In this document: one piece after another, positions 2,181 to 62,192 of the stretch
Numbering within the stretch: position 1 is the first letter of the stretch
How the letters are laid out: each line of letters begins with the position of its first letter
DNA from: an uncultured Candidatus Saccharibacteria bacterium
Lineage (GTDB): Bacteria; Patescibacteriota; Minisyncoccia; UBA6257; Colwellbacteraceae
Direction of reading: 5' to 3'
DNA: 64,000 nt
Assembly (NCBI GenBank): GCA_964643135.1
Contig: CAZXPC010000004.1
Location: forward strand, 4,716 to 68,715
Translations under genes and position numbers: made by a program
Notes under the pieces: generated by a model
Seen by the model: only the letters and a program-made list of their open reading frames with translations
What the model was told of the DNA's origin: nothing
The model's database searches: none

Positions 2181-2313
2181 GAGTTAATTATGGACTAATT
2201 GTAGCATGGGTTATATAATCAAATCACTTTCGGGATTATCCCGCGGCCCCGCTAGAAATAGCGGGGAATTCTCTTTATTTTTCCTTCATCTGCGAAGTTG
2301 TAGCATTGAAGTT

Positions 2314-2706
2314 ATGACTCATATAAAAGATTTTGATGGATGGAATGAGAATAAAAAGGAAATTCACAATCGCGTTGATGGGCCATTTTTCCATACTCGT
2401 GAAATATGGTGGTGCTCACTTGGTCTAAATATAGGCTTTGAGCAGGATGGATCAAGCGATGACTATTATCGCCCCGTACTCATATTGAAAGGCTTGGGAA
2501 GATGGACCTGTCTAGCTGTTCCACTGACTACTTCTGCAAGAGATCATAAGTTGCGCCCCTCCATCGGTGTTGTCGAAGGCAAGGAGGATCGTGCTCTTAT
2601 CTCGCAAATCAGAGTTATAGATGCGAAGCGTTTAGTAAGGAAAGTAGGCTATCTTGAAAGCAATATCTTTGAAATCATAAGAAAAACCGTCAAGGATATG
2701 ATCTGA
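2314..2706 (+). CDS. MazF/PemK-family endoribonuclease toxin with N-terminal extension
   Basis: REIWWCSLGLNIGFEQDG...RPVLILKG...QIRVIDAKRL aligns with B. subtilis EndoA/YdcE (GDVYFADLSPVVGSEQGG..RPVLVIQ..QIRTIDKQRL). Start taken at the internal Met at 2314; the ORF track extends to 2206 with no stop. Confidence 0.6.
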   Translation: MTHIKDFDGWNENKKEIHNRVDGPFFHTREIWWCSLGLNIGFEQDGSSDDYYRPVLILKGLGRWTCLAVPLTTSARDHKLRPSIGVVEGKEDRALISQIRVIDAKRLVRKVGYLESNIFEIIRKTVKDMI

Positions 2707-4390: not shown

Positions 4391-4927
4391 ATGTCTTCTG
4401 ATAAGCAGGCGGCAAAGGAAACTATTCTGGAAACAGATAGTTTAGCGGTAACCTCTAGTAAATCGAAAGATCGCGGCTTAGGTGTTTTTGCAAAACATAG
4501 TTTCCGAGCTGGAGAGTTATTATTTGAAGTTAGAGGCCCAATAATGGCAAGAGGAACTAAATATTCATTATCTGTTGGCTTTGGCCAACACATTGAACCA
4601 AAAACAGAAGACGGCAAAGATGATTTCGGACATTACATGAACCACTCTTGTGATCCGAATGCATTTGTAAAAGTCGTAGCCTCATCTAAAACTCCCTACA
4701 TAGAGATCAGAGCGCGCAGGAATATCAAAAAGGGTGAAGAGTTAACATTTGATTACGCCTCATCAGAATATGAGGTAACAATAAATGGAGTTTCTTGCAG
4801 ATGCGACACAAAGCTGTGTAGGGGTAAAATTCATGGATTCAAAGATCTACCTAAAGATATTTTCGATCAGTATAAAAAAGAGGGAATAATTCCCGACCAC
4901 CTAACAAGTATTTCCAGTAATAATTAA
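4391..4927 (+). CDS. SET-domain protein (putative SAM-dependent lysine methyltransferase)
   Basis: NHSCDPN motif, ELTFDY motif and post-SET cysteine cluster CRCDTKLCRG; 5-bp gap to the upstream SpeH-like gene. Confidence 0.8.
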   Translation: MSSDKQAAKETILETDSLAVTSSKSKDRGLGVFAKHSFRAGELLFEVRGPIMARGTKYSLSVGFGQHIEPKTEDGKDDFGHYMNHSCDPNAFVKVVASSKTPYIEIRARRNIKKGEELTFDYASSEYEVTINGVSCRCDTKLCRGKIHGFKDLPKDIFDQYKKEGIIPDHLTSISSNN

Positions 4928-6746: not shown

Positions 6747-7304
6747 ATGACCAAGACTGGAAAAGTAGTTTATCGTGGCATGGCGGCGGGCAAGCCGATT
6801 GTTATTCGCTATCCTAAAATGAGCGATGCGAAGGCGGCATTGGAATTTATCAATAAAATCTCTCGGGAAAAGAGCTTCCTTAACATACAAGGCAAGCAGT
6901 TGAACATGAAGGAAGAGCGAGCCTTCCTAAAAAAGAATATCTCTGGCATTAAGAAAAAAGTCTGCGTTCATCTCTTCGTCTTGGCTGGGGATCGAATTGT
7001 CGGTTCGGCAACTATGAATCGCGAGAGTATAGATGCTCAAAAACATAAAGCTGAGTTCGGTATAGTTATGGCCAAGGATATGAGAGGCTACGGGATCGGC
7101 AGACTTTTGATGTCGCTCGTTCTGAAAGAATCAGAGCGTAGTATGCAGGGCGTAAAAATGTTCACTCTGAAAGTTTTTGCTAATAACCCTCTCGCATTTA
7201 GAATGTACAGAAAGTTCGGCTTCAAACAGTTCGGCATCTTGCCCAAAGGAGTAACACACAAAGGCAAGCCCGTTGACGAAATATTCATGTATAAAGACCT
7301 ATAG
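6747..7304 (+). CDS. GNAT family N-acetyltransferase
   Basis: 185 aa; acetyl-CoA binding motif region RGYGIGRLLMSLVL and C-terminal FGF..G pattern. Confidence 0.7.
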   Translation: MTKTGKVVYRGMAAGKPIVIRYPKMSDAKAALEFINKISREKSFLNIQGKQLNMKEERAFLKKNISGIKKKVCVHLFVLAGDRIVGSATMNRESIDAQKHKAEFGIVMAKDMRGYGIGRLLMSLVLKESERSMQGVKMFTLKVFANNPLAFRMYRKFGFKQFGILPKGVTHKGKPVDEIFMYKDL

Positions 7305-8955: not shown

Positions 8956-9522
8956 ATGAAAATATCTCAATTGACATATGTCACGGGGAATAATTTCAAA
9001 TTCGAAGTGGCGAAAAAGGCTTTTGCTGGCTCGGGTATTGAGATAACTCAAACCAAGATGGACTTGCCGGAAATACAAAGCGAGAGCGTGGAGGAAATAG
9101 CAGGTCACTCGGCCAAGATCGCAGCGCAAAAGTTGGGCATGCCGGTTTTGGTTGGTGACGTTGGCTATTCTGTTGAAGCGCTTAGTGGTTTTCCGGGACC
9201 GTTTATAAAATATATGAATAAATGGCTAACTGTGCAGGACTGGCTAAATTTAATGCAGGGAAAGGAAAATAGAAGCATGATAATTAAAGAAGCCCTCGCC
9301 TACTGCGAACCGAATTCTGAACCCACAGTTTTTACCGGATCTTTTAACGGACTGGTAGCGCTAAAAGCTGGTCCGCCGGGCAAAAACCCGGTCAACCAAG
9401 TTTGGATACCCGAGGGCTACAATAAAGTTGAAACTGAAATACCTGAAGGAGAGTTGGTTCAGGGCTGGATAAAAACTTCCGGCCATTGGGAGAAGTTAAT
9501 AAAATATTTGAAAACGAAATAA
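8956..9522 (+). CDS. Ham1/ITPase-family non-canonical purine NTP pyrophosphatase paralog 2
   Basis: LTYVTGNNFKFEVA, KMDLPEIQSESVEEIA and VLVGDVGYSVEALSGFPGPFIKYM closely match ITPA consensus motifs. Confidence 0.8.
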   Translation: MKISQLTYVTGNNFKFEVAKKAFAGSGIEITQTKMDLPEIQSESVEEIAGHSAKIAAQKLGMPVLVGDVGYSVEALSGFPGPFIKYMNKWLTVQDWLNLMQGKENRSMIIKEALAYCEPNSEPTVFTGSFNGLVALKAGPPGKNPVNQVWIPEGYNKVETEIPEGELVQGWIKTSGHWEKLIKYLKTK

Positions 9523-9525
9523 AGG

Positions 9526-10077
9526 TTATCTAGGGTTTTTATAGATCCTGTATTCGATAATTTTCCTGACTACTCCCCTAGAGTTAGCCTTGTCATATTC
9601 CTCATAAACTTTGGCCCCCATTGATTCTGGGATTTTTCGGCTCGCAATATTCTCAGGCATAACTGGATAGCGAAGATAATCATAATTTATGTTGGTATCC
9701 GCCCAATCTTTTAAGGCCGCCATCGTTTCCCGACCATATTTTTTACCGTGGGCTGATTTCTTGATCCAGATGCCGAGCTCCGGAGTTGGGGTATCAACAT
9801 CGTGCAACCCTCCGCAACCGATAAACTCACCCGTTTGTTTATCAGTGATAACTATTTGTAGGTCTTTGCCAGCCGCTAAATCTCTGAGGGAATTATTTAT
9901 AAAGTTATCAGTAACAGATATATCCCCTGAAGGCTGAGGGAACATGTGGGTTGCGATTTCCTCTGTAAATTCACGGAAAATATCCTCGCGATAGATCGGG
10001 GAAATCGGAGCCAAGAGCAAATTAGCGGTTTCGATCCTGGAATCTAATAAGTTGAGTTTTTCTTTCGGGGTTTCCAT
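9526..10077 (-). CDS. GNAT family N-acetyltransferase (RimJ/RimL-like)
   Basis: 183 aa; GNAT motif A region around GCGGLHDV...GIWIKKSAHGKKYGRETMAAL. Confidence 0.65.
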   Translation of the reverse strand: METPKEKLNLLDSRIETANLLLAPISPIYREDIFREFTEEIATHMFPQPSGDISVTDNFINNSLRDLAAGKDLQIVITDKQTGEFIGCGGLHDVDTPTPELGIWIKKSAHGKKYGRETMAALKDWADTNINYDYLRYPVMPENIASRKIPESMGAKVYEEYDKANSRGVVRKIIEYRIYKNPR

Positions 10078-10085
10078 ACATCAAC

Positions 10086-11387
10086 TTATCTTTTCAGAAT
10101 ACTCTTAGTTTCGCCTAATAAATCCTCTGCTGAGACTTCGATTTGGGTTTTGTGGACCATGTCTTTGATCTGAATTTTGCCGGATTTTATTTCTTTGGGG
10201 CCGATGATAACGACAACTGGGTATTCGTTTTTCACGGCATAAGCCAGCTGACCCTTAAAGGTATCTTCCTTGCCTAAATATATTTCGGTATTGATGTCTG
10301 CATTTCTTAATTGAGTCGCGGTTTGCTGCACAGTCGAAGCTGACGAGCCATCGAAATTCAAAATCAAAACATCGGCGATTTTGGCCTGCTTTTTCAGCTT
10401 GCCAAGCTTTTCCAGGGCCGCAAACAGCCGATCAACGCCGATTGAAGCGCCGACTGCCGGCAAATTTTCATTGCTAAACTTGCTGATTAGCCCATCGTAG
10501 CGGCCGCCGGAACAAATACTGCCAATCTCGGGGATGTCAGTTAAGATAGTTTCGAAAACCATACCGGTGTAGTACGCCAGCCCGCGGGCAATTGAGAGGT
10601 CGATCACATAATTTTCTTTCGGCACGCCAAGGTGCTCCAAGGCGTTCACGACTTGAAGCATTTCAGCTGAACTAGTCTCTGGGTCAGATATCAATTCTTT
10701 GATTTTGGCCGCTTGGGTTTTAGCCAGTCCTAGGCTTTCGAGGTCGGTAGTCACCTTAGCCCAGCCGAATTTGTCTAACTTGTCGATGACGCGAAAAATA
10801 TCGTCTAGGTCCGGGCTCTTAGCCTTTTCTGAACCGCTTTCAGCAATTAGTTTAGCTAAAACTCGGCGATCACCGATTCGGATCTTAAAATTATCAACGC
10901 CCAGGGCTTTGATGGCAGAATACATGAGCGCGATGATTTCGGCGTCGGCCATGAGACTCTCTGAGCCAACAATGTCGGCATCGCACTGGGTAAATTCTTT
11001 GTAGCGGCCCATCTGCGCGCGCTCGCCGCGGAAAACTTTGCCAATTTGATAACGCTTAAAGGGCCGGCCGAGGTCAGATAAGTTGGCGGCTACAACCCGG
11101 GCCAGGGGCACGGTTAAGTCGAACCGCAGGGCTAGGTCCGAGACATCGCCATCTTCCCCTCCTCCCCGCTTGGCCAACCTAAAAATCTGTTTATTAAATT
11201 CTGGGTCGCCGCCGGTTAGGATTTCTTCGCGTTCAACAATCGGCGTGTCGAGCGGCACAAAACCGAACCGCTCAAAAACTGCGCGAATCGTGTCGAGCAT
11301 CTTTTGCCGCGGAATCATTTCCCCGGGAAGATAGTCCCGGAAACCCGACGCTAAAACTGGTTCGATCCTTTTATTCTTATTGGCCAT
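10086..11387 (-). CDS. hisS: Histidine--tRNA ligase
   Basis: Class II aaRS motifs and HisRS-specific patterns (GFRDYLPGE, RYDGLISKF, GASIGVDRL); start placed at internal Met MANKNKR (11387), overlapping the upstream receiver gene stop by 11 nt. Confidence 0.9.
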   Translation of the reverse strand: MANKNKRIEPVLASGFRDYLPGEMIPRQKMLDTIRAVFERFGFVPLDTPIVEREEILTGGDPEFNKQIFRLAKRGGGEDGDVSDLALRFDLTVPLARVVAANLSDLGRPFKRYQIGKVFRGERAQMGRYKEFTQCDADIVGSESLMADAEIIALMYSAIKALGVDNFKIRIGDRRVLAKLIAESGSEKAKSPDLDDIFRVIDKLDKFGWAKVTTDLESLGLAKTQAAKIKELISDPETSSAEMLQVVNALEHLGVPKENYVIDLSIARGLAYYTGMVFETILTDIPEIGSICSGGRYDGLISKFSNENLPAVGASIGVDRLFAALEKLGKLKKQAKIADVLILNFDGSSASTVQQTATQLRNADINTEIYLGKEDTFKGQLAYAVKNEYPVVVIIGPKEIKSGKIQIKDMVHKTQIEVSAEDLLGETKSILKR

Positions 11388-11847
11388 TGCTTTCGTGATC
11401 TGGCTTGATCTTGCTGATCTCTGCGTTAATGCCGTCAATTAAGTCGCCCTTGTGGATTTCGGCTAGAATTTTCTTGGTTAATTCCGGCAAATTGTCCAGG
11501 TCTTTGGTCTTGTCTAGAAAAGTTACAGCGCCAAGCTCCTTCGCAAAACTTTCATTTTCGACCGAAACTCCCGGCCAGGGAATAGCGAGGCTTGTCAGAA
11601 ACGCGACGTGGATGTCTTTGAGATCGGGGTCGTTTTTATAATCGAGCAGGGCTTCGGTGCCGTTGATGCCGGGCATGCGGATATCCATCAAAACCAAATC
11701 CGGCTTTATTTTTCGAGCCTTGATAAAAGAAGTTTCGGCGTCGATTGCAGTTTCAACCTGAAAGCCGGCGGCCTCGAGGCGCATTTTGGAAATATCGAGC
11801 AAATCCGGCTCGTCATCAACGACGAGTATCAGCGGGGGCGTGTGCAT
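11377..11847 (-). CDS. Single-domain response regulator receiver (CheY-like)
   Basis: LILVVDDEPD...LVLMDIRMPGINGTE...K receiver signature; no output domain. Confidence 0.8.
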   Translation of the reverse strand: MHTPPLILVVDDEPDLLDISKMRLEAAGFQVETAIDAETSFIKARKIKPDLVLMDIRMPGINGTEALLDYKNDPDLKDIHVAFLTSLAIPWPGVSVENESFAKELGAVTFLDKTKDLDNLPELTKKILAEIHKGDLIDGINAEISKIKPDHESNGQ

Positions 11848-11870
11848 AAACTAATAATACCACAAGAAAC

Positions 11871-12272
11871 TTAGCTAAGCTCCTTCATCAGCCGGCCTAC
11901 GTGGTCGATAATTTTATCCATATCATCGGTTTTTCTAATGTAATCCACCGCGCCTATTTCTTCGGCAAATTTGTTGTCGAGCCAAGCTTGGTTTTCCTTA
12001 GCTTCTCCATAGCTGGTTAGGAAACAAACCTTAGTATCTTTGATATCCGGATCGGTTTTGATTGCGGTTACGGCTTCGACGCCGTTCATGCCCGGCATTT
12101 CCATATCTAAGAGCACCAGATCCGGTTTCTGGGATCTAATCATAGCAATGCCCTCTTCGCCGCCCGAAGCGGTGATAACTTTGTAGCCGGCCGCGCCGAG
12201 TTTCAAAGAAAAAATCTCCCGGAAATCGGCGGTGTCGTCTATGACTAAAATGGTTTTTTGTTGATCGGCCAT
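11871..12272 (-). CDS. Single-domain response regulator receiver (CheY-like)
   Basis: ILVIDDTADF...LVLLDMEMPGMNG...K; no output domain. Confidence 0.8.
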   Translation of the reverse strand: MADQQKTILVIDDTADFREIFSLKLGAAGYKVITASGGEEGIAMIRSQKPDLVLLDMEMPGMNGVEAVTAIKTDPDIKDTKVCFLTSYGEAKENQAWLDNKFAEEIGAVDYIRKTDDMDKIIDHVGRLMKELS

Positions 12273-12339
12273 AATGGAATTGAGTATACGATATATAGTA
12301 TATAGGAAAGTTTAATCAAAAAAAAGTGGAGCGGCGAGG

Positions 12340-12513
12340 GACCTGCTTCTCCCCGCCTCTCCCGCTCCCCGGCCCCTCTCCCTCAGGAACCAGGATAATC
12401 CCGCCTCCAAACTCTCTTCCGCCCCTCGGAACCAGGATATTTTTTCTACTGAAAAAATTCCCTACCGCTCGGCTACCCGCCTCCGCAGTTTCCTCAGAGC
12501 GAAACCGAGTTCT
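12340..12513. repeat. Dispersed intergenic repeat, module I (tandem partial copy plus a full 114-nt copy at 12400-12513)
   Basis: 12400-12513 is nearly identical to the reverse complement of 47757-47870 and related to 47572-47635; a shorter direct copy of the ggaaccaggata core lies at 12370-12399. Confidence 0.8.
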
Positions 12514-12569
12514 CGGCTCTGTAGAGGGAGCTTAGAGTAGTAGGAAGAACCTCCAAACTACTCTGAGGA

Positions 12570-12697
12570 GCCTCTCGGAGACGCGTAGGCGTCGAGAAGA
12601 AGAAAATCTAGCAAGATTTATCTGTGGTGACGAAGGGTAGTTTGGGGTTCTGACACGGGAGAGTGGCAAGAGGGATGATATAGCTGGGGGCGCAGAT
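12570..12697. repeat. Dispersed intergenic repeat, module IV
   Basis: Shares gcgtaggcg.cgag...gaagaaaat...gatgatatagctgggggcgc with 52250-52364; the 20-mer gatgatatagctgggggcgc is identical at 12674-12693 and 52345-52364. Confidence 0.65.
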
Positions 12698-14526
12698 CAG
12701 GCTAGCGGCAGAGAGAAGCTGAAGGTTGAGCCTTGGCCTTCAGCGGACTCCACGTAGATCGTGCCGTTCATTTTCTCGATGATTTGCTTCACGATAAAGA
12801 GGCCGAGGCCGGTGCCGCTGATATTGGCTGTGTCTTTGGTCGCGACTCGGTAGAATTTGGTGAAAAGCTTAGCCTGAGCATCCTTCGAGATTCCTAAGCC
12901 GTGATCTTTGATATGAGTCACGAGATTCTTTTCGGTCGTTTCGTGGCTAATCTCAATCGAACCATTACCGACCGTGTACTTAATAGCGTTGCCGATTAAA
13001 TTGACGAGCACTTCGCGGACGCGGCCATTGTCGGCCATGACAGCCGGGGTGGGCGTAAGCGGTGTGTAGACCATCTTGATCCCCTTCTCATCGGCCAAAG
13101 GTTTCAGCTCGCTCAATGTTTCATTTACAACCGGGACAATATCGGTTTTAACCACATCCACTTTGATTTTCCCGGCATCTGACCGGGCCACTTCGAGCAA
13201 ATCTTCAACAAGCCTGATGAGGCGCGCGTTGGCATTCAAAACTTTGGTGATGAATCCTTTGACTTGGTCGGAGACCGGTCCGGCCAGGCCGTCGTTGATG
13301 ATAGACAAGTAGCCCTTAATCGCCGCAACTGGAGTTTTAAGCTCGTGCGCAGCGATGAAAACGAATTCGTCTTTCAAGGCCTGCAATTGCTTGAGGCCCT
13401 CGGTCATTTTGTTGAAGGCGAGCCCCAAGTCTTCGATTTCGTCCCCGGTTTTGATAGTAACCGGCTCATCGAACTTGCCTTTAGCAACGGCTTCGGTGCC
13501 GGCTTCGAGCTGCTGGATCGGACCGACAATTTTATTGGTCAGTAAAACGCTTAAAAGCAAAACGAGAACAAAAACGATCAAAGAAAATATTATGATCTGC
13601 ACTTCCAGCGCAACCAACACTGAATCGGCGTCGGCGCTCGGCCATTCGGCCACTATGCCCCAACCCAAGCCGGTGATATTTGTGCCGGCGGCGATAACCG
13701 GGAGGCCGTTCAAGCTGACATATCTTTGAGTGCGCGCCGTCGAGAGGGATCCCCGGCCGGAGAGAATGTCTTGCGTGATCGGCGAACTACTCAAATTGTC
13801 CGGCAAGTCGCCGGCCCTCAGGCCTTTGCCGATCACGCGGCCGCTTTGATCAAAAATATAAACATAGCCTGTTTTGCCGAGGGCGGCGCTCTGCGCAATT
13901 CGATTCACGGCGGTTAAATTCAATTCAGCGCTCAAAATAGAAATGGCGCAATTGGCTGCGTTCCGGACCGGAGCCGCAATCGTGACCGCGGGGCCGCTGG
14001 CGTTAAAATAGACCGGCCCGATGTAGTCATAATTTTGATTGCCGGCTTCGCTCTTGCAGTTATCCGCACCTGCAAGCGCGGCGGAAACTTTTTTAAAACT
14101 TTCTAAGTTGCTTTCATCGCGCAACTCGGGAGTTTGGCCCAACTTTTGATAGGCCCGGCTGACTCGCGAGATTTCGCGGCCGGTATTAATGTCTATAAAA
14201 GAGGCTTCCTCGATGGCAGAATTGGCATCGATAAGTTGATTCAAGAGAATGCCTCTGGTTTCAGCGGTGAATTCTTTGTCCAGGTCGCTCACGGTCACGA
14301 CGAGTTCGAGATTGCGTTTGGTCTCATCGATGAACCGGTTCACCTCCTGTATTTTCTCGCTGATTAAGTTACTTTCGATCGAGGCGACGCTCTCGTTGTG
14401 CGACTGAGTCACAAAATAAAGGGCGAACAAGCCAGCCAAGATAACGGGCAAGACGCCTATGCCGAGCATCATTAAGAGGATTTTTTTGTGCAACCGGCCG
14501 CCTAACTTGAAAGACTTTTTATCCAT
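12697..14526 (-). CDS. Sensor histidine kinase with periplasmic sensor domain and HAMP
   Basis: 609 aa; N-terminal TM, large extracytoplasmic domain, second TM, HAMP (NKIVGPIQQLEAGTEAVAKGKFD), HisKA (AAHELKTPVAAIKGY), HATPase_c (GTGLGLFIVKQIIEKMNGTIYVES). Confidence 0.85.
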   Translation of the reverse strand: MDKKSFKLGGRLHKKILLMMLGIGVLPVILAGLFALYFVTQSHNESVASIESNLISEKIQEVNRFIDETKRNLELVVTVSDLDKEFTAETRGILLNQLIDANSAIEEASFIDINTGREISRVSRAYQKLGQTPELRDESNLESFKKVSAALAGADNCKSEAGNQNYDYIGPVYFNASGPAVTIAAPVRNAANCAISILSAELNLTAVNRIAQSAALGKTGYVYIFDQSGRVIGKGLRAGDLPDNLSSSPITQDILSGRGSLSTARTQRYVSLNGLPVIAAGTNITGLGWGIVAEWPSADADSVLVALEVQIIIFSLIVFVLVLLLSVLLTNKIVGPIQQLEAGTEAVAKGKFDEPVTIKTGDEIEDLGLAFNKMTEGLKQLQALKDEFVFIAAHELKTPVAAIKGYLSIINDGLAGPVSDQVKGFITKVLNANARLIRLVEDLLEVARSDAGKIKVDVVKTDIVPVVNETLSELKPLADEKGIKMVYTPLTPTPAVMADNGRVREVLVNLIGNAIKYTVGNGSIEISHETTEKNLVTHIKDHGLGISKDAQAKLFTKFYRVATKDTANISGTGLGLFIVKQIIEKMNGTIYVESAEGQGSTFSFSLPLA

Positions 14527-35493: not shown

Positions 35494-35862
35494 TTATTTG
35501 GTGCCGAGCTTTTTGGTTGAAGATATAAAATTGTTTAATTTAACTCCTAGGTTTTGCATCTCAAGATACAATTGCGAATAAGCTGGATCTTTTACGAAGC
35601 CACGGTCTTTGAGTGTCTCGAGCCAGTGCATAGCCTCGATCAATGAACCACGAGCATTGTAATTGAATTTATTGCGATCCAGATAATGAAAACGGCCGAA
35701 TCCTTCGGCTATGTTAGCCCCGACAGAATCGACGGATCTTATAAATTGATCACCTATTATGCTTTTCGTTTTATAGTCAAACACTGTATAGATCTTCCAG
35801 CTTTTTGCCGAAACACCGCAGGCTAGCTGATAAACCTCTAAATCTTTTAAATCCATAATCAT
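35494..35862 (-). CDS. Four-helix-bundle protein (TIGR02436; 23S rRNA intervening-sequence protein family)
   Basis: DLEVYQLA...DQFIRSVDSVGANIAEGFGRFHY...GSLIEAMHWLE matches the family consensus. Confidence 0.75.
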   Translation of the reverse strand: MIMDLKDLEVYQLACGVSAKSWKIYTVFDYKTKSIIGDQFIRSVDSVGANIAEGFGRFHYLDRNKFNYNARGSLIEAMHWLETLKDRGFVKDPAYSQLYLEMQNLGVKLNNFISSTKKLGTK

Positions 35863-37136: not shown

Positions 37137-38432
37137 TTAGATGTTGTGGATCATGCAACCAAGGATCGTCCCAGCACCCGGGTCGGCAGAGAAGGTAGCT
37201 GTTAAGGTGTCTGCAGTTGGTACAACCTTGTTCAAGCTGACAGAGTTAGCTGAGGCGTCTAGTGAACAGGCCACTACTGCCGTTGACCTTAAACCAGTCA
37301 TAGTGAACGCGTTTGAAGTGGCGCCACCGCCGTAAGTCGTGCTGCGGATCATTGCAAACTGGTTCTGAATCAATGAAGTGGTAGCTGGAGGGGAAGTCGG
37401 GGTAAGAACAAGGGCTCCTGTACCGTACTGGATTGTTGTTTTAGATGTAGTGTTAGATGAACCAAGAACGATTGTCTGAACAGCTGCGCCAGTACCGATC
37501 TGGATACCGTGGGCAGTTGCGCCGTTACCGATCAAGATAGCGCCAGCTGCAGTACCACCTTCTAAGGTAAGCGTTGAGCTTGCGTGAGCAGAACCAACGG
37601 CAACAAGGTCAGCGCCGGTTGCGTCAGCGCCAACGTTGATAGTTGTTGTTTTTGCAACAGCATCGTTACCAACGTTCAAGTTTCCTGTACCAGCGTTGAT
37701 GGTGGTAGCAGAAGTTGAATTGGTTGAGCCGAGAACAACAGTGTTTACGGCTGCGCCAGTACCGATCTGGATACCGTGGGCAGTTGCGCCGTTACCGATC
37801 AAGATAGCGCCAGCTGCAGTACCACCTTCTAAGGTAAGCGTTGAGCTTGCGTGAGCAGAACCAACGGCAACAAGGTCAGCGCCGGTTGCGTCAGCGCCAA
37901 CGTTGATAGTTGTTGTTTTTGCAACAGCATCGTTACCAACGTTCAAGTTTCCTGTACCAGCGTTGATGGTGGTAGCAGAAGTTGAATTGGTTGAGCCGAG
38001 AACAACAGTGTTTACGGCTGCGCCTGAACCAATGCTTATTGTTTTTGCAGTAGCACCGTTACCGATCGAGATACCGCCAGTGTTTGCGGCACCGATTGAA
38101 ATGGTTGATGATGTTGCGTTGTCGAACAATGTGTTAGCGCCCCCGGTGACTGCGCCGTTGTAGGTAGTGGCACCGGTTGCGGTAGCGTTACCAAGCGTTA
38201 ATGTGCCCGTGGTCAAAGCGCCGCCCATCAAGATGTTCGATGCGGCTGCGGCTTCGAGGGTTAAGGCTCCGCTGCTGGTTGCTGTTAATGCGCCAAAAGT
38301 CAAAGTTGCTGAAGCTCCGTTGACTCCGACTACTCCGACCATCAAGGACAGTACGCCCAAGATGAGTCCTAATTTTGTTAATTTGTTTTTAATCATTTTT
38401 GTAAAATTTGTAATTGTTTTTTGGGGAATCAA
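37137..38432 (-). CDS. Secreted Ala/Thr/Gly-rich repeat protein (adhesin-like) containing a perfect tandem duplication
   Basis: Signal peptide; an 89-aa unit (…GSTNSTSATTINAGTGNLNVGNDAVAKTTTINVGADATGADLVAVGSAHASSTLTLEGGTAAGAILIGNGATAHGIQIGTGAAV…) occurs twice identically, then a third diverged copy. Confidence 0.7.
   Translation of the reverse strand: MIPQKTITNFTKMIKNKLTKLGLILGVLSLMVGVVGVNGASATLTFGALTATSSGALTLEAAAASNILMGGALTTGTLTLGNATATGATTYNGAVTGGANTLFDNATSSTISIGAANTGGISIGNGATAKTISIGSGAAVNTVVLGSTNSTSATTINAGTGNLNVGNDAVAKTTTINVGADATGADLVAVGSAHASSTLTLEGGTAAGAILIGNGATAHGIQIGTGAAVNTVVLGSTNSTSATTINAGTGNLNVGNDAVAKTTTINVGADATGADLVAVGSAHASSTLTLEGGTAAGAILIGNGATAHGIQIGTGAAVQTIVLGSSNTTSKTTIQYGTGALVLTPTSPPATTSLIQNQFAMIRSTTYGGGATSNAFTMTGLRSTAVVACSLDASANSVSLNKVVPTADTLTATFSADPGAGTILGCMIHNI
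37483..38016. repeat. Perfect 267-bp direct tandem duplication (2 copies) inside the adhesin-like gene
   Basis: Identical antisense ORFs at 37636 and 37903 are offset by exactly 267 nt; the sequence is nucleotide-identical across both units. Confidence 0.85.
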
Positions 38433-38684
38433 ATTCTTATATCTTCGATTTTTGTTTTTTGGAGTAAACCGACCTTAAGATGTTTTACTCTAAAAAAACA
38501 AATGTTTAATCGAGTCTAAAAATTTGAGGTTTATAATTTTATACTTTTCCTTCTTATGATTATCACGAGCTTCTAGACGGCTCACGAGAATCTGCGACCT
38601 TTCCATAAACCGCATTTTGCGGATTGCAATTATTATAACATAGCAAGGCTTCGGGTGCTGAAAGATCAAACTGTGGATATCTTC

Positions 38685-38820
38685 CCGCCTCCGAAATCCG
38701 ATCTACCCTTCAGGGCACAGCATAAATCTCTGCTGAGATTTTGCTTTCCGCTCACCCGCCTACGCGGGCTTCCGCGAATCCCTTCAGAATAGATTCGGAT
38801 TTCTCGGCTATGCTAAGGAG
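38685..38820. repeat. Dispersed intergenic repeat, module II (hairpin/TIR element) containing module III
   Basis: Termini cccgcctccgaaatccgatctaccc ... agattcggatttctcggctatgctaaggag are mutually inverted and homologous to the termini of 52031-52223; interior 38731-38787 is homologous to 47668-47727. Confidence 0.75.
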
Positions 38821-43941: not shown

Positions 43942-44370
43942 TTTGTAAATTAATTCGTAAAATCTTTTTGTATTATTTGGATGATACCTTGCAAGTTACC
44001 ATCATCGACCAGCTGCTCTACACATGTGAGGTTTGTGCCTTTCCCACCTCGGCCCCTCAGCCCACTTGTGAGGTGAGGGGCTAAGGCGAGGTATAAAGCG
44101 GCGAGCTGATGTTTGCAAAGATCCTAGTAACAATTTCGGACGGGGCAGATCTTAAAAAAGAAATGACCTCGAGTGAGGCGATGACGTGAACGAAACAGGT
44201 ACGAAGGATTCACCTCGGAAACGAGGAGACGCCTTGCGCCTGTAAAAATATTTGCTTAGGTAGGCCTCACTTCCTGCCTAAATCAATATTTACTTAATGC
44301 TAGCACGTGAGATCACATGCTTGCAATAGGGTAAAACGCGGCGTCAACCGCAACGTTACATGGCAGGTTC

Positions 44371-44392
44371 GACAGCTTGCGCGCCAACTCGG
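44371..44392. repeat. Dispersed intergenic repeat, module V (22-mer shared with 52146-52167)
   Basis: gacagcttgcgcgccaactcgg identical at both sites, within a 460-nt structured non-coding spacer. Confidence 0.6.
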
Positions 44393-44403
44393 ACAAGCTA
44401 AGT

Positions 44404-47571: not shown

Positions 47572-47870
47572 CCCGCCTCCGAATCTGCCTCTGCCCCTCG
47601 GAACCACAGGTGATCTCTACTGAAACTCGCCCTCCCTCATCCCACTCCGGGAAACACAATAATTTCTTGCTAGAAATTTTGTTTTTGCTCACCCGTCTTC
47701 ACGGGCTTGCGCAGATTCCCTTCATGGAACAAGGTCGGGCTAGTCTACATAGCCAAAGAACTCGGTTTCGCTCTGAGGAAACTGCGGAGGCGGGTAGCCG
47801 AGCGGTAGGGAATTTTTTCAGTAGAAAAAATATCCTGGTTCCGAGGGGCGGAAGCGAGTTCGGAGGCGGG
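47572..47870. repeat. MITE-like element: 37-nt terminal inverted repeats (module I) flanking an internal module III
   Basis: 47572-47608 (cccgcctccgaatctgcctctgcccctcggaacca) vs reverse complement of 47834-47870 (cccgcctccgaactcgcttccgcccctcggaaccagg); 47757-47870 is about 95% identical to reverse complement of 12400-12513; interior 47668-47727 homologous to 38731-38787. Confidence 0.8.
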
Positions 47871-49504: not shown

Positions 49505-49556
49505 AATTTGGGCGGGTGAAACCTTCTAGCCGCCGAAGTGTTATACATAATAGAGG

Positions 49557-49745
49557 ATGGTGCACCAAATGCCCGAAGACATCCACGTGACTGCGGAAGG
49601 CCACTGTGAGCAGTGCGGAGAGGAGAAGGAACTCCAGAATGGGCAGCTGGTCTGTCCGAGCCTCAACGACGGGAAGCATGCGATTTCTCTGGGGATCAAT
49701 TTCATCCACAACACCCTAGAGAAGGCCCGCAAACACCACCACTGA
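49557..49745 (+). CDS. Possible small zinc-ribbon protein (62 aa)
   Basis: CEQCG...18 aa...CPS Cys pairs; locally elevated GC (about 57%); ends in HHH. Confidence 0.3.
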   Translation: MVHQMPEDIHVTAEGHCEQCGEEKELQNGQLVCPSLNDGKHAISLGINFIHNTLEKARKHHH

Positions 49746-49959
49746 CTAGCACAAAAGTCGGGGGTGGCATTTTTCAAGCCAAAAATGCAAAATTGACATT
49801 AAAAGCCGTTGAGGCTAGAATATAATCAATTACTAAGCTTAAGTTTATAGATATTGTTGCCTCTCCCTAACCCCCTTCGTTACCACGTATTTGAATTTTT
49901 TTTGAATTTTAACGAATAGCTCGCCTCTCTTTATTAGTAATCAGGCCCATTTGCGATAA

Positions 49960-50041
49960 GGGCGGATGGTGGAACTGGCATACACCTGCGTCTCAGAAGC
50001 GCAGTCCGCAAGGATTGAGGGTTCAAATCCCTCTCCGCCCA
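49960..50041 (+). tRNA. tRNA-Leu (anticodon CAG), class II with long variable arm
   Basis: Manual fold: acceptor GGGCGGA/TCCGCCC; U8; 3-bp D-stem GTG/CAC with 11-nt D-loop GAACTGGCATA (compare E. coli tRNA-Leu GAAUUGGUAGA); anticodon stem TGCGT/GCGCA with loop CTCAGAA (U33, anticodon CAG); 13-nt variable arm; T-arm GAGGG-TTCAAAT-CCCTC; discriminator A73; CCA not encoded. Confidence 0.85.
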
Positions 50042-50086
50042 CAATAGTTATAAAAATAATTAGAAAAATAATATTAATTAATAGGT

Positions 50087-52027: not shown

Positions 52028-52030
52028 TCA

Positions 52031-52223
52031 TCCGCCTTCGAAATCCGAATCTACCTTTCGCTTAGCTCTCTCCTCGTCGAGGTGCTTCCAAGCTGTCTCG
52101 GGAGACCGCTCACGGCCGCTTGGCCTAGGGGTTTAGTCTCCCTGCGACAGCTTGCGCGCCAACTCGGGGGAGCTAGAGCTCAGGATAGATTTCGGATTTC
52201 TCTCGGCTATGTAGAGCTAAGAG
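52031..52223. repeat. Dispersed intergenic repeat, module II (hairpin/TIR element) containing module V
   Basis: Termini tccgccttcgaaatccgaatctacc ... gatagatttcggatttctctcggctatgtagagctaagag are mutually inverted and homologous to 38685-38820; contains the 22-mer at 52146-52167 shared with 44371-44392. Confidence 0.75.
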
Positions 52224-52249
52224 CCGTAAACCATAGCCCCGCAGGGAAC

Positions 52250-52364
52250 ATCGCGCAGGAGCGTAGGCGACGAGCGCGAAGAAAATTTTGAGCACAAAAT
52301 TATTCTGTTTCCCGAGGAGGCTGTGGTTGGAGGCTCGGGGTGGAGATGATATAGCTGGGGGCGC
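52250..52364. repeat. Dispersed intergenic repeat, module IV
   Basis: Homologous to 12570-12697 including the identical 20-mer gatgatatagctgggggcgc. Confidence 0.65.
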
Positions 52365-52431
52365 GGAGCTCATCACCCGAAAAAGAAAAAGGCCCGCTGA
52401 GAGATGTGAATCTATCGTCGGGTTTTGTCGT

Positions 52432-52653
52432 TTAGAGCCACCAGGCTGGCCAGTCGTCTTTGAAATAGAGCAGTGAGCCCATCATGAATTCGAAGATTGC
52501 CACACTCATGACGCTGAGCCATTCGTCGGCCCAGACTGGGTGAAAAACGACCTGCTCGACGGTTCCGATGAGGAACACGACCATGATGAAGACGATCACG
52601 CCGACGAGCATCCGGATAGAAAGCCGAGTACTCCAGTGCAGATTACTATCCAT
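52432..52653 (-). CDS. Possible small membrane protein (73 aa)
   Basis: Two hydrophobic helices; GC somewhat above background; weak support. Confidence 0.3.
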   Translation of the reverse strand: MDSNLHWSTRLSIRMLVGVIVFIMVVFLIGTVEQVVFHPVWADEWLSVMSVAIFEFMMGSLLYFKDDWPAWWL

Positions 52654-52699
52654 CCCATCACTACATCTTAGTTATAGCCCTCAGAATTGATCCGGTCAA

Positions 52700-57263: not shown

Positions 57264-57334
57264 GAGCTAAATTCTATCAAAATCAGCCTAGTTTTACTAG
57301 AATTTGACACGATTTTGGCGAGTGTCAAAGGCTC

Positions 57335-57476
57335 ACAAACCCTCCCCTCAGGAACCGGGATAAATCTCTTCCAGCGAGAGATTTTCCCTCAGCGCTCAGC
57401 CAGTGGTCGCCGTAATATAAAACGGCGCACCTAGCTCCACTGGCTTCCGCGATGTTCCTTCAGAAAGGGTTTGTTC
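57335..57476. repeat. Dispersed intergenic repeat (related to module I core ggaacc.ggata) with inverted termini, in the ileS 5' leader
   Basis: cacaaaccctcccctcaggaaccgggataaatc ... gaaagggtttgttcg; termini acaaaccct / agggtttgt inverted; several internal hairpins (gccagtgg...ccactggc). Confidence 0.55.
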
Positions 57477-57490
57477 GTTATGGAAACCAC

Positions 57491-61425: not shown

Positions 61426-61497
61426 CCACGCCGAAGATTAAAGCCATTTTATAAAAATTGATTTTGAATCGGAGCGGGGGTAGGCTGAAATTAGCAT

Positions 61498-62136
61498 ATG
61501 AAGGCGGTTATATTCGATATTGATGGTACGCTCACGCCGGAAATCTCGTGGCTATTTTTGACCGAAGCTCTGGGCGCGTCTAAAAGCGAGCATTTAGAGA
61601 TATTTAACAGCATGAAAGCCGGTGAAATTGACCTGCCCCTGGCAACCAGCCAGTTACTTCGACTATGGCAAGCGAGCGGACAGGCTAATTTGGGAAAACT
61701 TAGAGAAATTTTTGACAAAGTAAGTCTGCGTGAAGGAGCGCTCGAAATCGTGAATTACCTGCGAAGCGAAAATTATAAACTCTGCCTCATCTCCGGTTCG
61801 ATGGGCTTATACGCCGAGACGATTGCTAAAAAGTTAGGGGTTGAAGCGTATTTCAGCAACACCGAGCTGATTTTTGATAAGGCCGGCCAATTAATCAATT
61901 TTAAATATCAGCCGGACCAGGGCGCGATCAAACTAAAACAGCTTATGGAATTTTGCGCGCGCGAAAATATAACGCTCAAGGATTGCGCGGTGATCGGCGA
62001 CAGCGGAAACGATTTGGAAATTTTTAAAGCAACCGGACACGGCATTATTTTGAAGGGCGGCACACCGGAGCCCACCCTCGGGGACGCTGCTTGGAAAAAA
62101 ATAGAGGATTTGGGGGAAATTAAAGCCATTTTATAA
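61498..62136 (+). CDS. HAD-superfamily hydrolase (phosphoserine-phosphatase-like)
   Basis: Motif I FDIDGTLT, motif II ISGS, C-terminal GDSGNDLE. Confidence 0.75.
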   Translation: MKAVIFDIDGTLTPEISWLFLTEALGASKSEHLEIFNSMKAGEIDLPLATSQLLRLWQASGQANLGKLREIFDKVSLREGALEIVNYLRSENYKLCLISGSMGLYAETIAKKLGVEAYFSNTELIFDKAGQLINFKYQPDQGAIKLKQLMEFCARENITLKDCAVIGDSGNDLEIFKATGHGIILKGGTPEPTLGDAAWKKIEDLGEIKAIL

Positions 62137-62192
62137 AAATTGATTTTGGTTCTGCCCGGTAGTACGCTGAAATTAGGATTCGAGGGTTTGAC

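Follow-up and report, generated by a model that had tools for sequence, protein, structure and literature searches.

ERIC/IRU sequences of enterobacteria are 127-bp imperfect palindromes that lie between genes in either orientation, carry insertions at fixed sites and show compensatory changes. Patescibacteria (candidate phyla radiation) have very small, tightly packed genomes, in which one would not expect dense repeat families. REPINs consist of two inverted REPs with a spacer between them, and exploit a RAYT (PMC3337134). Here, we have analyzed a 64-kb stretch of DNA from an uncultured bacterium (the window; contig CAZXPC010000004.1 of assembly GCA_964643135.1), in which a non-coding spacer separates the gene for a sensor histidine kinase from the genes for two response-regulator receivers. 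In this spacer, one ∼125-nt repeat is piled up in three copies, two of them full and placed head-to-head, the third truncated. The repeat, which folds and is multiplied between the genes of this species and of one close relative, is previously undescribed. It is most likely selfish mobile DNA, REPIN/ERIC-like, and not a control element specific to the kinase. In our preferred reading, to which we assign a probability of about 0.6, the family is a non-autonomous repeat that would be copied within its genome via a single-stranded intermediate of the G-rich strand.

A first-pass annotation had described a gap of about 420 nt that separates the receivers from the kinase and is built from dispersed repeats. 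Gene calls and Pfam agree with this arrangement, the gap being 424 nt long (12273-12696), and both BLAST self-comparison and covariance models detect copies of its components elsewhere in the window. A dot-plot empty of similarity would have spoken against the claim, and significant matches were found (E to 1.5e-43). The strongest pairs 12400-12525 with the reverse complement of 47744-47870, at 96% identity over 127 nt (BLAST E 1.5e-43) or 98% over 114 nt, and weaker yet significant matches of the spacer lie at 38683-38817, 47572-47625, 52201-52367 and 57340-57363. A 34-nt motif pattern gave four matches in the window and none in 100 shuffles. A first covariance model, seeded with one copy (38684-38812) and its predicted fold, recovered six more full-length copies with E values of 1e-8 to 1e-15, each on one strand only. 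The final model was made for the G-rich strand, rebuilt from match columns with gaps as N; models on the C-rich and G-rich strands return the same set of copies. The window contains exactly seven full copies, scoring 46-123 bits (E 1e-11 to 1e-34), with the next match at 15 bits. All seven are intergenic, in five of the seven long intergenic gaps.

One could suspect chance similarity, low complexity or an assembly artefact, as the genome is metagenome-assembled and assemblies break at these repeats. This explanation is refuted by the BLAST and covariance E values (to 1e-43 and 1e-34, respectively), by the lack of any motif match in the shuffles, and by the presence of the family in separate assemblies of other samples. 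Furthermore, an independent Logan assembly reproduces positions 9378-12445 without mismatches over 3068 nt before breaking inside the young copy 12400-12521, which makes it unlikely that the left part of the spacer (12273-12445) is an artefact of this one assembly.

The locus reads as follows, in window coordinates.

11377-11847, minus strand: second single-domain response-regulator receiver (Pfam Response_reg, E 2.1e-15)
11871-12272, minus strand: first single-domain response-regulator receiver (Pfam Response_reg, E 1.7e-22)
12273-12317, minus strand: promoter-like region of the first receiver, with TATATACT / TATACT boxes 10-40 nt upstream of the ATG (from sequence)
12318-12368, minus strand: GC-rich imperfect hairpin (fold −25 kcal/mol) and a run of 8-9 T on the coding strand
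about 12345-12399, minus strand: truncated copy, lacking its 5' end on the folding strand, directly 3' of a full copy (from sequence)
12400-12521, minus strand: full copy, folding strand minus and sense to the operon (BLAST; covariance-model E 7.8e-26)
12522-12535, no strand: head-to-head junction of the two full copies, where 5' leader motifs of CTCTACAGAGCC type meet (sequence and flank comparison)
12536-12659, plus strand: full copy, G-rich folding strand plus and antisense to the kinase and receiver genes (covariance model)
12660-12696, plus strand: 37-nt 3' flank of the plus-strand copy, holding the 20-mer GATGATATAGCTGGGGGCGC at 12674-12693
12697-14526, minus strand: sensor histidine kinase (open reading frame (ORF) and Pfam: dCache, HAMP, HisKA, HATPase_c), whose stop codon abuts the spacer

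All genes here are on the minus strand, on which the kinase lies upstream, followed by the two receivers and histidyl-tRNA synthetase. Two of the components had been annotated as separate modules, I and IV, but they are members of one family in opposite orientations (12400-12521 and 12536-12659). A partial Module I does stand beside a full one, with limits revised to about 12345-12399 and 12400-12521. As to Module IV (12570-12697), its 20-mer is indeed near the kinase stop codon, but in the flank of the copy, which itself spans 12536-12659. The exact 20-mer occurs only there and at 52345-52364, in the equivalent flank of copy 52219-52337. Successive covariance models matched 12536-12659 with E values of 2.7e-11, 2.9e-23 and 1.8e-19, the last match spanning 12539-12659, and the P1 stem of this copy, AGAACCCCAAACTAC, is identical in copies of a relative (loci L023 and L030, the latter at 7129). 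The minus-strand copy 12400-12521 is 96-98% identical to 47748-47870, with similarity extending to about 12527; given this identity, it would be a recent copy. The truncated copy keeps ...ATTATCCTGGTTCCTGAGGG...GGCGGGG, and its positions 12374-12398 are 92% identical to 57340-57363. The hairpin at 12318-12368, which resembles an intrinsic terminator, is partly made from the end of the truncated copy. A 69-codon ORF starting with GTG (12326-12535, plus strand) lies wholly in the C-rich strand of the repeat copies and is almost certainly spurious.

Elsewhere in the window the family has the following members.

38684-38812, minus strand: solo copy, the most canonical (covariance-model E 7.8e-34)
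47572-47625, minus strand: truncated member directly after a SecG-like stop codon, 78% identical to 12400-12454
47626-47744, minus strand: full member, head-to-head with 47748-47870 (covariance-model E 2.8e-22)
47748-47870, plus strand: full member, near-identical twin of 12400-12521 (covariance-model E 5.7e-25)
52030-52205, no strand: variant element with the outer stem of 38684-38812 and a different long-hairpin core (sequence comparison)
52219-52337, plus strand: full member, followed by the second 20-mer at 52345-52364 (covariance-model E 1.1e-21)
57332-57478, minus strand: full member with a 34-nt insertion in its GC-rich hairpin (covariance-model E 3.5e-11)

The variant element 52030-52205 was missed by the covariance models. 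Most of the repeat sites proposed by the first-pass annotation (38.7, 47.6-47.9, 52.0-52.4 and 57.3-57.5 kb) thus carry the family; the one at 44.4 kb has nothing in common with the spacer, sharing only a 31-mer (44370-44400) with 52145-52175. Head-to-head arrangements like that at 12522-12535 recur at 47744-47748 and 52205-52219. As for the surroundings, copy 38684-38812 is bordered by a terminator-like hairpin on one side and, on the other, by the start of the next gene, copy 47748-47870 ends 35 nt before the start of a solute-binding-protein gene, and copy 57332-57478 is placed between a terminator and the promoter region of a gene for a 1190-aa class-I tRNA synthetase (probable IleRS), with a syntenic counterpart in the relative (L030:12141-12269).

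Several other features were noted in the intergenic gaps. The long gap 49505-50086, which has no repeat unit, contains tRNA-Leu(CAG) (49960-50042) and a short Cys-rich ORF (around 49560-49745), and the equivalent region of L030 has a unit at 4764-4886 and a different, 178-aa gene. An uncalled ORF of ∼78 codons with a hydrophobic product (52424-52660, minus strand) lies between repeats and a tRNA-synthetase gene; if real, it would reduce the non-coding part of that gap from 672 to ∼396 nt. A palindrome, TTGACAC-N11-GTGTCAA (57303-57327), is found in the stretch that separates the repeat unit from the start of the probable IleRS gene, and a similar one occupies the same place in the relative (L030:12096-12123), which would fit an operator-like or divergent promoter element.

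As assessed by single-sequence folding, each copy folds on its own into one common architecture. Units are 119-147 nt long, ∼125 nt being typical. The outer stem has 15-20 pairs, several of them G·U, and is interrupted by a conserved symmetric internal loop of tandem G·A/G·A type, in which CUGAAGGG faces CCCUGAAGGG. It leads to a three-way junction, from which two hairpins emerge: one is GC-rich, with a GNAG loop and often a further G·A/G·A loop inside, and the other is AU-rich, with an AGCA loop. Read on the G-rich strand, a unit has a 5' leader of CTCTACATAGCC type and a 3' end of GGAGGCGGG type. In 17 sequences from four assemblies, standard pairs fill 92.6% of the cells of the model, as opposed to 36-51% after shifting the partners one to three columns, and two-sided changes are seen at 39 of 41 pairs; none of 500 shuffles reached the observed pairing values. 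A structure-guided alignment was required, MAFFT and RNAalifold alone returning only one hairpin. The outer stem is the part that varies most between copies. The two strands are not equivalent. On the C-rich strand 23 cells would be A·C and only 7 G·U, and the G-rich strand folds better in 14 of 14 copies, by 2-22 kcal/mol (mean 13.6). The folding strand is therefore the G-rich one.

Four known structured elements were compared with the unit by eye and set aside. For a hammerhead ribozyme, CUGAAGG stands where CUGANGA is required, the cleavage-site H is a G and GAAA is not conserved. AGGAAC...GTTCCT mismatches the RYYYAAC...GTTRRRY of integron attC sites, and loop sizes are unsuitable for a K-turn. 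One copy lies upstream of the probable IleRS gene as a T-box leader might, but it lacks T-box sequence and most copies are elsewhere. In addition, Rfam gave no match at gathering thresholds over the whole window; when two repeat-bearing gaps were searched to E 10, all matches scored less than half of the gathering score, mostly to eukaryotic miRNA and lncRNA models.

How does this family compare with those already described? With REP sequences and REPINs it shares an extragenic, high-density, non-coding existence, hairpins formed by a single strand, an occurrence singly or in inverted pairs, restriction to a lineage within which it persists and diversifies, and many copies (7 in 64 kb of the window and 7 in 17 kb of the relative). 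Both lack terminal inverted repeats and target duplications, and a Y1/HUH transposase-like gene lies beside a copy in a related genome. However, a REP is a simple palindrome of 20-40 nt, whereas the present unit has 119-147 nt and a three-way junction, and the GTAG-type tetranucleotide found 5' at the foot of the REP stem is not conserved here. In the head-to-head pairs that we compared with REPINs (12.4-12.66, 47.63-47.87 and 52.03-52.34 kb), the partners, unlike those of REPINs, are of different sub-types, 41-50% identical, with different stems and no pairing with each other. No cognate RAYT was found for the repeat in the 64-kb window. ERIC/IRU sequences resemble it in length, imperfect palindromy, intergenic location, either orientation, internal insertions and a preserved structure, but there is no sequence similarity, the phylum is another one, the fold here is branched and its stems diverge far more. 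As with the Correia elements of Neisseria, the RUP and BOX elements of pneumococcus and the BIMEs of E. coli, gaps become mosaics of repeats in alternating orientation, insertions lie near promoters and terminators with a possible change in transcription, and assemblies are broken. Correia and RUP elements differ in that their terminal inverted repeats are clear and that they have TA or short duplications, features not found for this repeat, and the modules of BOX and BIMEs are shorter and unbranched. Finally, PATEs derived from IS200/IS605 likewise have no inverted ends or duplications, are strand-specific and hairpin-dependent, and lie near AT-rich motifs and each other. In the present family, we could define no fixed target of 4-5 nt, the two internal hairpins are unlike each other and no TnpA gene carries the ends of the repeat. 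In the literature searched, no REP-, MITE- or ERIC-like repeats have been described in Patescibacteria.

Homologues of the kinase and of RNase J place the window in Patescibacteria, near Candidatus Colwellbacteria / Paceibacteria. Kinase orthologues are 54-65% identical, with conserved neighbouring genes, and gene order is kept in relatives around both the kinase and the RNase J loci. The distribution of the repeat among these relatives is narrow.

GCA_040384205.1 (loci L030 and L023), RNase J 86% identical: 7 strong copies in the syntenic 17 kb, all intergenic
L034-L036, RNase J 79% identical: one diverged copy, which fills the RNase J/tRNA-synthetase gap
L038 and L039, RNase J 83% and 70% identical: no units
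L031-L033, RNase J 59-61% identical: no units
L024, L025, L027, L028 and L029, kinase loci: no units

Copies in L030 occupy gaps that also hold copies in the window, i.e. between SecG and the solute-binding protein, between RNase J and the tRNA synthetase (a head-to-head pair) and, in the same orientation, upstream of the probable IleRS. In L023, the contig with the kinase gene breaks off within a copy that directly follows the kinase stop codon. This copy has the outer stem of window copy 12536-12659, but orthology could not be concluded from it, as the same stem recurs after RNase J in that genome. Scanning metagenomes via RNase J yielded three loci only, at 59-61% identity, and these hold no units. 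In 185,579 species-representative GTDB genomes, a set evidently lacking the window's own genome, the motif scan gave 21 matches, all of them singletons from unrelated phyla; the covariance model confirmed none of these, which are due to chance. The family was not matched in viral contigs, plasmids or phages, blastn found no match in 5,426 complete E. coli genomes, and Rfam gave nothing on the relatives' loci L023-L025 and L027.

Comparison of the copies with each other shows signs of propagation. Most pairs are 40-60% identical and one is 96-98% identical. The closest match of nearly every copy is found in the genome to which it belongs, and syntenic pairs of the two species are only 33-52% identical. 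In these syntenic pairs, the junction and hairpin-tip sequences are alike and the outer stems are completely different, yet still paired. Content also differs between species at the same site: the gap between iPGM (phosphoglycerate mutase) and holin genes measures 9 nt in the window versus 280 nt with two copies in L030, and the gap between SecG and the solute-binding protein holds 2.5 copies in the window versus one in L030. Each of the three truncated copies is missing its 5' part, as read on the folding strand, and lies immediately 3' of a full copy, with the fragment-plus-full-copy junctions at 12399/12400, 47572-47625/47626 and, in L030, 7100-7128/7129. Two of the three have the same junction, in which ...GGATAAT is followed by the new copy. 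Head-to-head pairs, whose partners are of different sub-types, hold 10 of 15 copies. The sequences next to the copies are AT-rich, and motifs resembling TTAT and TCTA recur in them, but not as a fixed word at a fixed distance.

Could the units be classical miniature inverted-repeat transposable elements, moved by double-stranded cut-and-paste with the outer stem serving as inverted ends? In favor of this are their small size, many copies, non-coding nature and location between genes, an outer stem reminiscent of 20-30-bp inverted ends, variant 52030-52205, in which a different core is set in the outer stem of another copy, and the iPGM-holin gap, which is occupied in one species and not in the other. 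However, none of 15 copies shows a target-site duplication, and the ends of the 96%-identical pair (CCCGCC... and ...GTAGA) are not inverted repeats of each other. These two tests make a classical miniature transposon unlikely, and two further observations point the same way. The outer stem is the most variable part of the unit, whereas the ends of such elements are usually the most conserved, and strand asymmetry in wobble pairs is unexpected for a purely double-stranded mechanism. We thus regard this explanation as improbable.

The same asymmetry, together with the absence of double-strand transposon hallmarks, is the reason for proposing a single-strand intermediate. The leading candidate would be G-rich single-stranded DNA on which, as with REP/REPIN elements, a tyrosine (HUH/Y1) transposase acts, the gene for this enzyme lying elsewhere. 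RNA would be an alternative intermediate, a route that we keep open because the 5' truncations are uniform. New copies would land where they do no harm: just behind stop codons, in the stretch from a terminator to the following promoter, or beside or inside resident copies. What the data show directly is the family with its fold and strand asymmetry, homogenization within genomes, differences in presence between species, the lack of inverted ends and of target duplications, and the narrow distribution; movement as such, its intermediate and its enzyme are inferred, like any effect on transcription.

A different explanation holds that the units are functional structured RNAs kept by the host (3'-end protectors, insulators/terminators or protein-binding small RNAs), which were multiplied by duplication and act on transcripts such as those of the kinase and receivers. 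Covariation is very strong, junction and internal-loop nucleotides are conserved, and G·U pairs are concentrated on one strand, all of which such RNAs would account for. Tandem G·A loops are widespread as binding motifs for proteins or metals. Moreover, two species have copies at syntenic positions, and the RNase J/tRNA-synthetase gap of the 79% relative still holds a diverged copy. On the other hand, the orientation of copies relative to flanking genes is mixed, about half being antisense. Solo copies have a terminator on one side and the next promoter on the other; convincing −35/−10 boxes of their own are not found upstream of them, and a U-run follows none of the copies in the family. Because of this mixed orientation and of the placement of promoterless solo copies, selfish DNA fits better than a cis-regulatory RNA. 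In addition, there is no Rfam match, paralogues are more alike than syntenic copies, and close relatives have genomes without the family, which is hard to square with an essential role. Functional RNAs are thus an unlikely explanation of the family, although the conserved junction nucleotides speak for it.

The search for an enzyme that would copy the repeat gave one lead. When compared with Pfam, the proteins of the 64-kb window included no match to a transposase or reverse-transcriptase family. However, a Y1-like gene (HUH motif NHYHLLL) is present in only some strain variants of the 79% relative (L037:7270-7917 and L035:2598-2700), where it sits between the RNase J stop codon and the single repeat unit, within the RNase J/tRNA-synthetase gap. 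It matches only the C-terminal half of the Pfam Y1_Tnp profile, with 31 bits for a cutoff of 23. The gene shows that such enzymes occur in the lineage, without a link to the repeat family.

Several points weigh against a selfish repeat copied through a single strand. The Y1-like gene scores only 25 bits against the REP-associated tyrosine transposase family (cutoff 80), and its own hairpins (TTGCTGACGT...ACGTCAGCAA, at the 3' end and inside the 5' part) are unrelated to the units. No cognate transposase was linked to the repeat, and no transposition event, within-population empty-site allele or target-site signature was seen. Conserved junction nucleotides and covarying helices are also expected of a functional RNA, and similarity within a genome could reflect gene conversion instead of movement. 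Many copies occur in two genomes only, in a sample of 17 sequences, and the covariation alignments were fitted to the model, which tilts the pairing counts toward structure, although independent single-sequence folds agree with them.

It is also conceivable, though we hold it to be doubtful, that the repeat represents a new class of branched, strand-specific mobile element, copied through RNA or single-stranded DNA without inverted ends or duplications, and possibly an RNA module co-opted by the host. The uniform 5' truncation of the three fragments could hint at copying from the 3' end, as in target-primed reverse transcription.

What the copies mean for the two-component operon can be judged from relatives with the same gene order. 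There, the gap between kinase and receiver measures 93 nt (L025) and 40 nt (L028), and the 424-nt spacer is therefore an expansion. The suggestion that the insertion altered the structure of the operon is borne out in this respect, but the receivers probably have a promoter that predates the repeats, because −10 boxes of TATACT type, situated 10-25 nt before the ATG of the first receiver, are also found in L024, L025, L027 and L028, tight gaps included, which have no units. The hairpin and T-run at 12318-12368 are no more stable than expected by comparison with shuffles (z = −0.7), and a scan for consensus terminators made no call there. The added structured DNA and the hairpin/T-run would probably lower read-through from the kinase into the receivers. 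Long spacers without units are found in L024 (724 nt), L027 (527 nt) and L029 (at least 648 nt). The T-run and promoter segment of the window is 83% identical to that of L027 over 42 nt, and the rest of the window spacer has nothing in common with these long spacers. Because equally long spacers exist without the repeat, the kinase-receiver junction is a recurrent sink for non-coding DNA with several kinds of filling, of which the repeat units are that of this lineage.

These relatives also bear on whether the spacer might be a locus-specific regulatory leader or small RNA gene of the two-component system, similarity to other sites being secondary. L024, L027 and L029 have post-kinase promoters of TTGACA-N17-TATAGT/TATACT type followed by 450-650 nt of non-coding DNA, a T-run lies near the end of the spacer in L027, L029 and the window, and the L023 copy with the same outer stem comes right after the kinase stop codon. 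However, the T-run/promoter segment is all that the window spacer shares with those of these relatives, the units also lie beside unrelated housekeeping genes, and the outer stem of L023 is found after RNase J in that genome too, which leaves a leader of this kind very improbable.

The relatives' spacers have features of their own. A near-consensus promoter (TTGACA, 17-18 nt, then TATAGT, TATACT or TATTTT) follows right after the kinase stop codon in the spacers L024:2683-3406, L027:10879-11405 and L029:3955-4602. The L027 and L029 spacers end in a T-run, share the short motifs CCCTAGTGYCCAGCTC and GGGAATCTRGGGA, and each contain an ORF of 30-32 codons. Judging by such signals, the three spacers may harbor an unannotated small RNA or small-protein gene. 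Rfam had no match on the L024 and L027 spacers.

Other features of the window stand apart from the repeat family. A 68-nt direct repeat, 82% identical (61437-61504 and 62119-62186), lies directly upstream of two consecutive genes and reaches into their starts, which encode a HAD hydrolase and an unknown 189-aa protein, and may be a common leader or promoter module. Two tandem 267-nt repeats, 91% identical (37416-37949), are inside a gene of unknown function (37137-38432, 431 aa), which, with a third, weaker 34-nt match at 38047, encodes a repeat-domain protein. A gene of the '23S rRNA intervening sequence protein' family, a four-helix bundle, is present both in the window (35494-35862, minus strand) and in a relative (L037:209-574). 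Finally, a PemK/MazF-like toxin domain is found in a 166-aa protein (2206-2706, plus strand) whose gene adjoins that of a GAF-domain histidine kinase (762-2180).

For the two-component system itself the consequence is modest: kinase and receivers lie further apart, but the boxes of the receiver promoter are older than the repeats. On a practical level, the repeats break metagenome assemblies exactly at gene junctions and can seed spurious ORFs, such as the 69-codon one at 12326-12535. With its clear covariation and a defined folding strand, the family is a good system in which to ask how non-autonomous elements without inverted ends are recognized, and it serves a second question, whether streamlined episymbiont genomes tolerate or exploit such repeats. 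Were it a new class of mobile element, it would fill a few percent of a streamlined Patescibacteria genome of roughly 1 Mb. The importance of the family would be high if copying through single-stranded DNA or RNA, or a function for the host, proved true.

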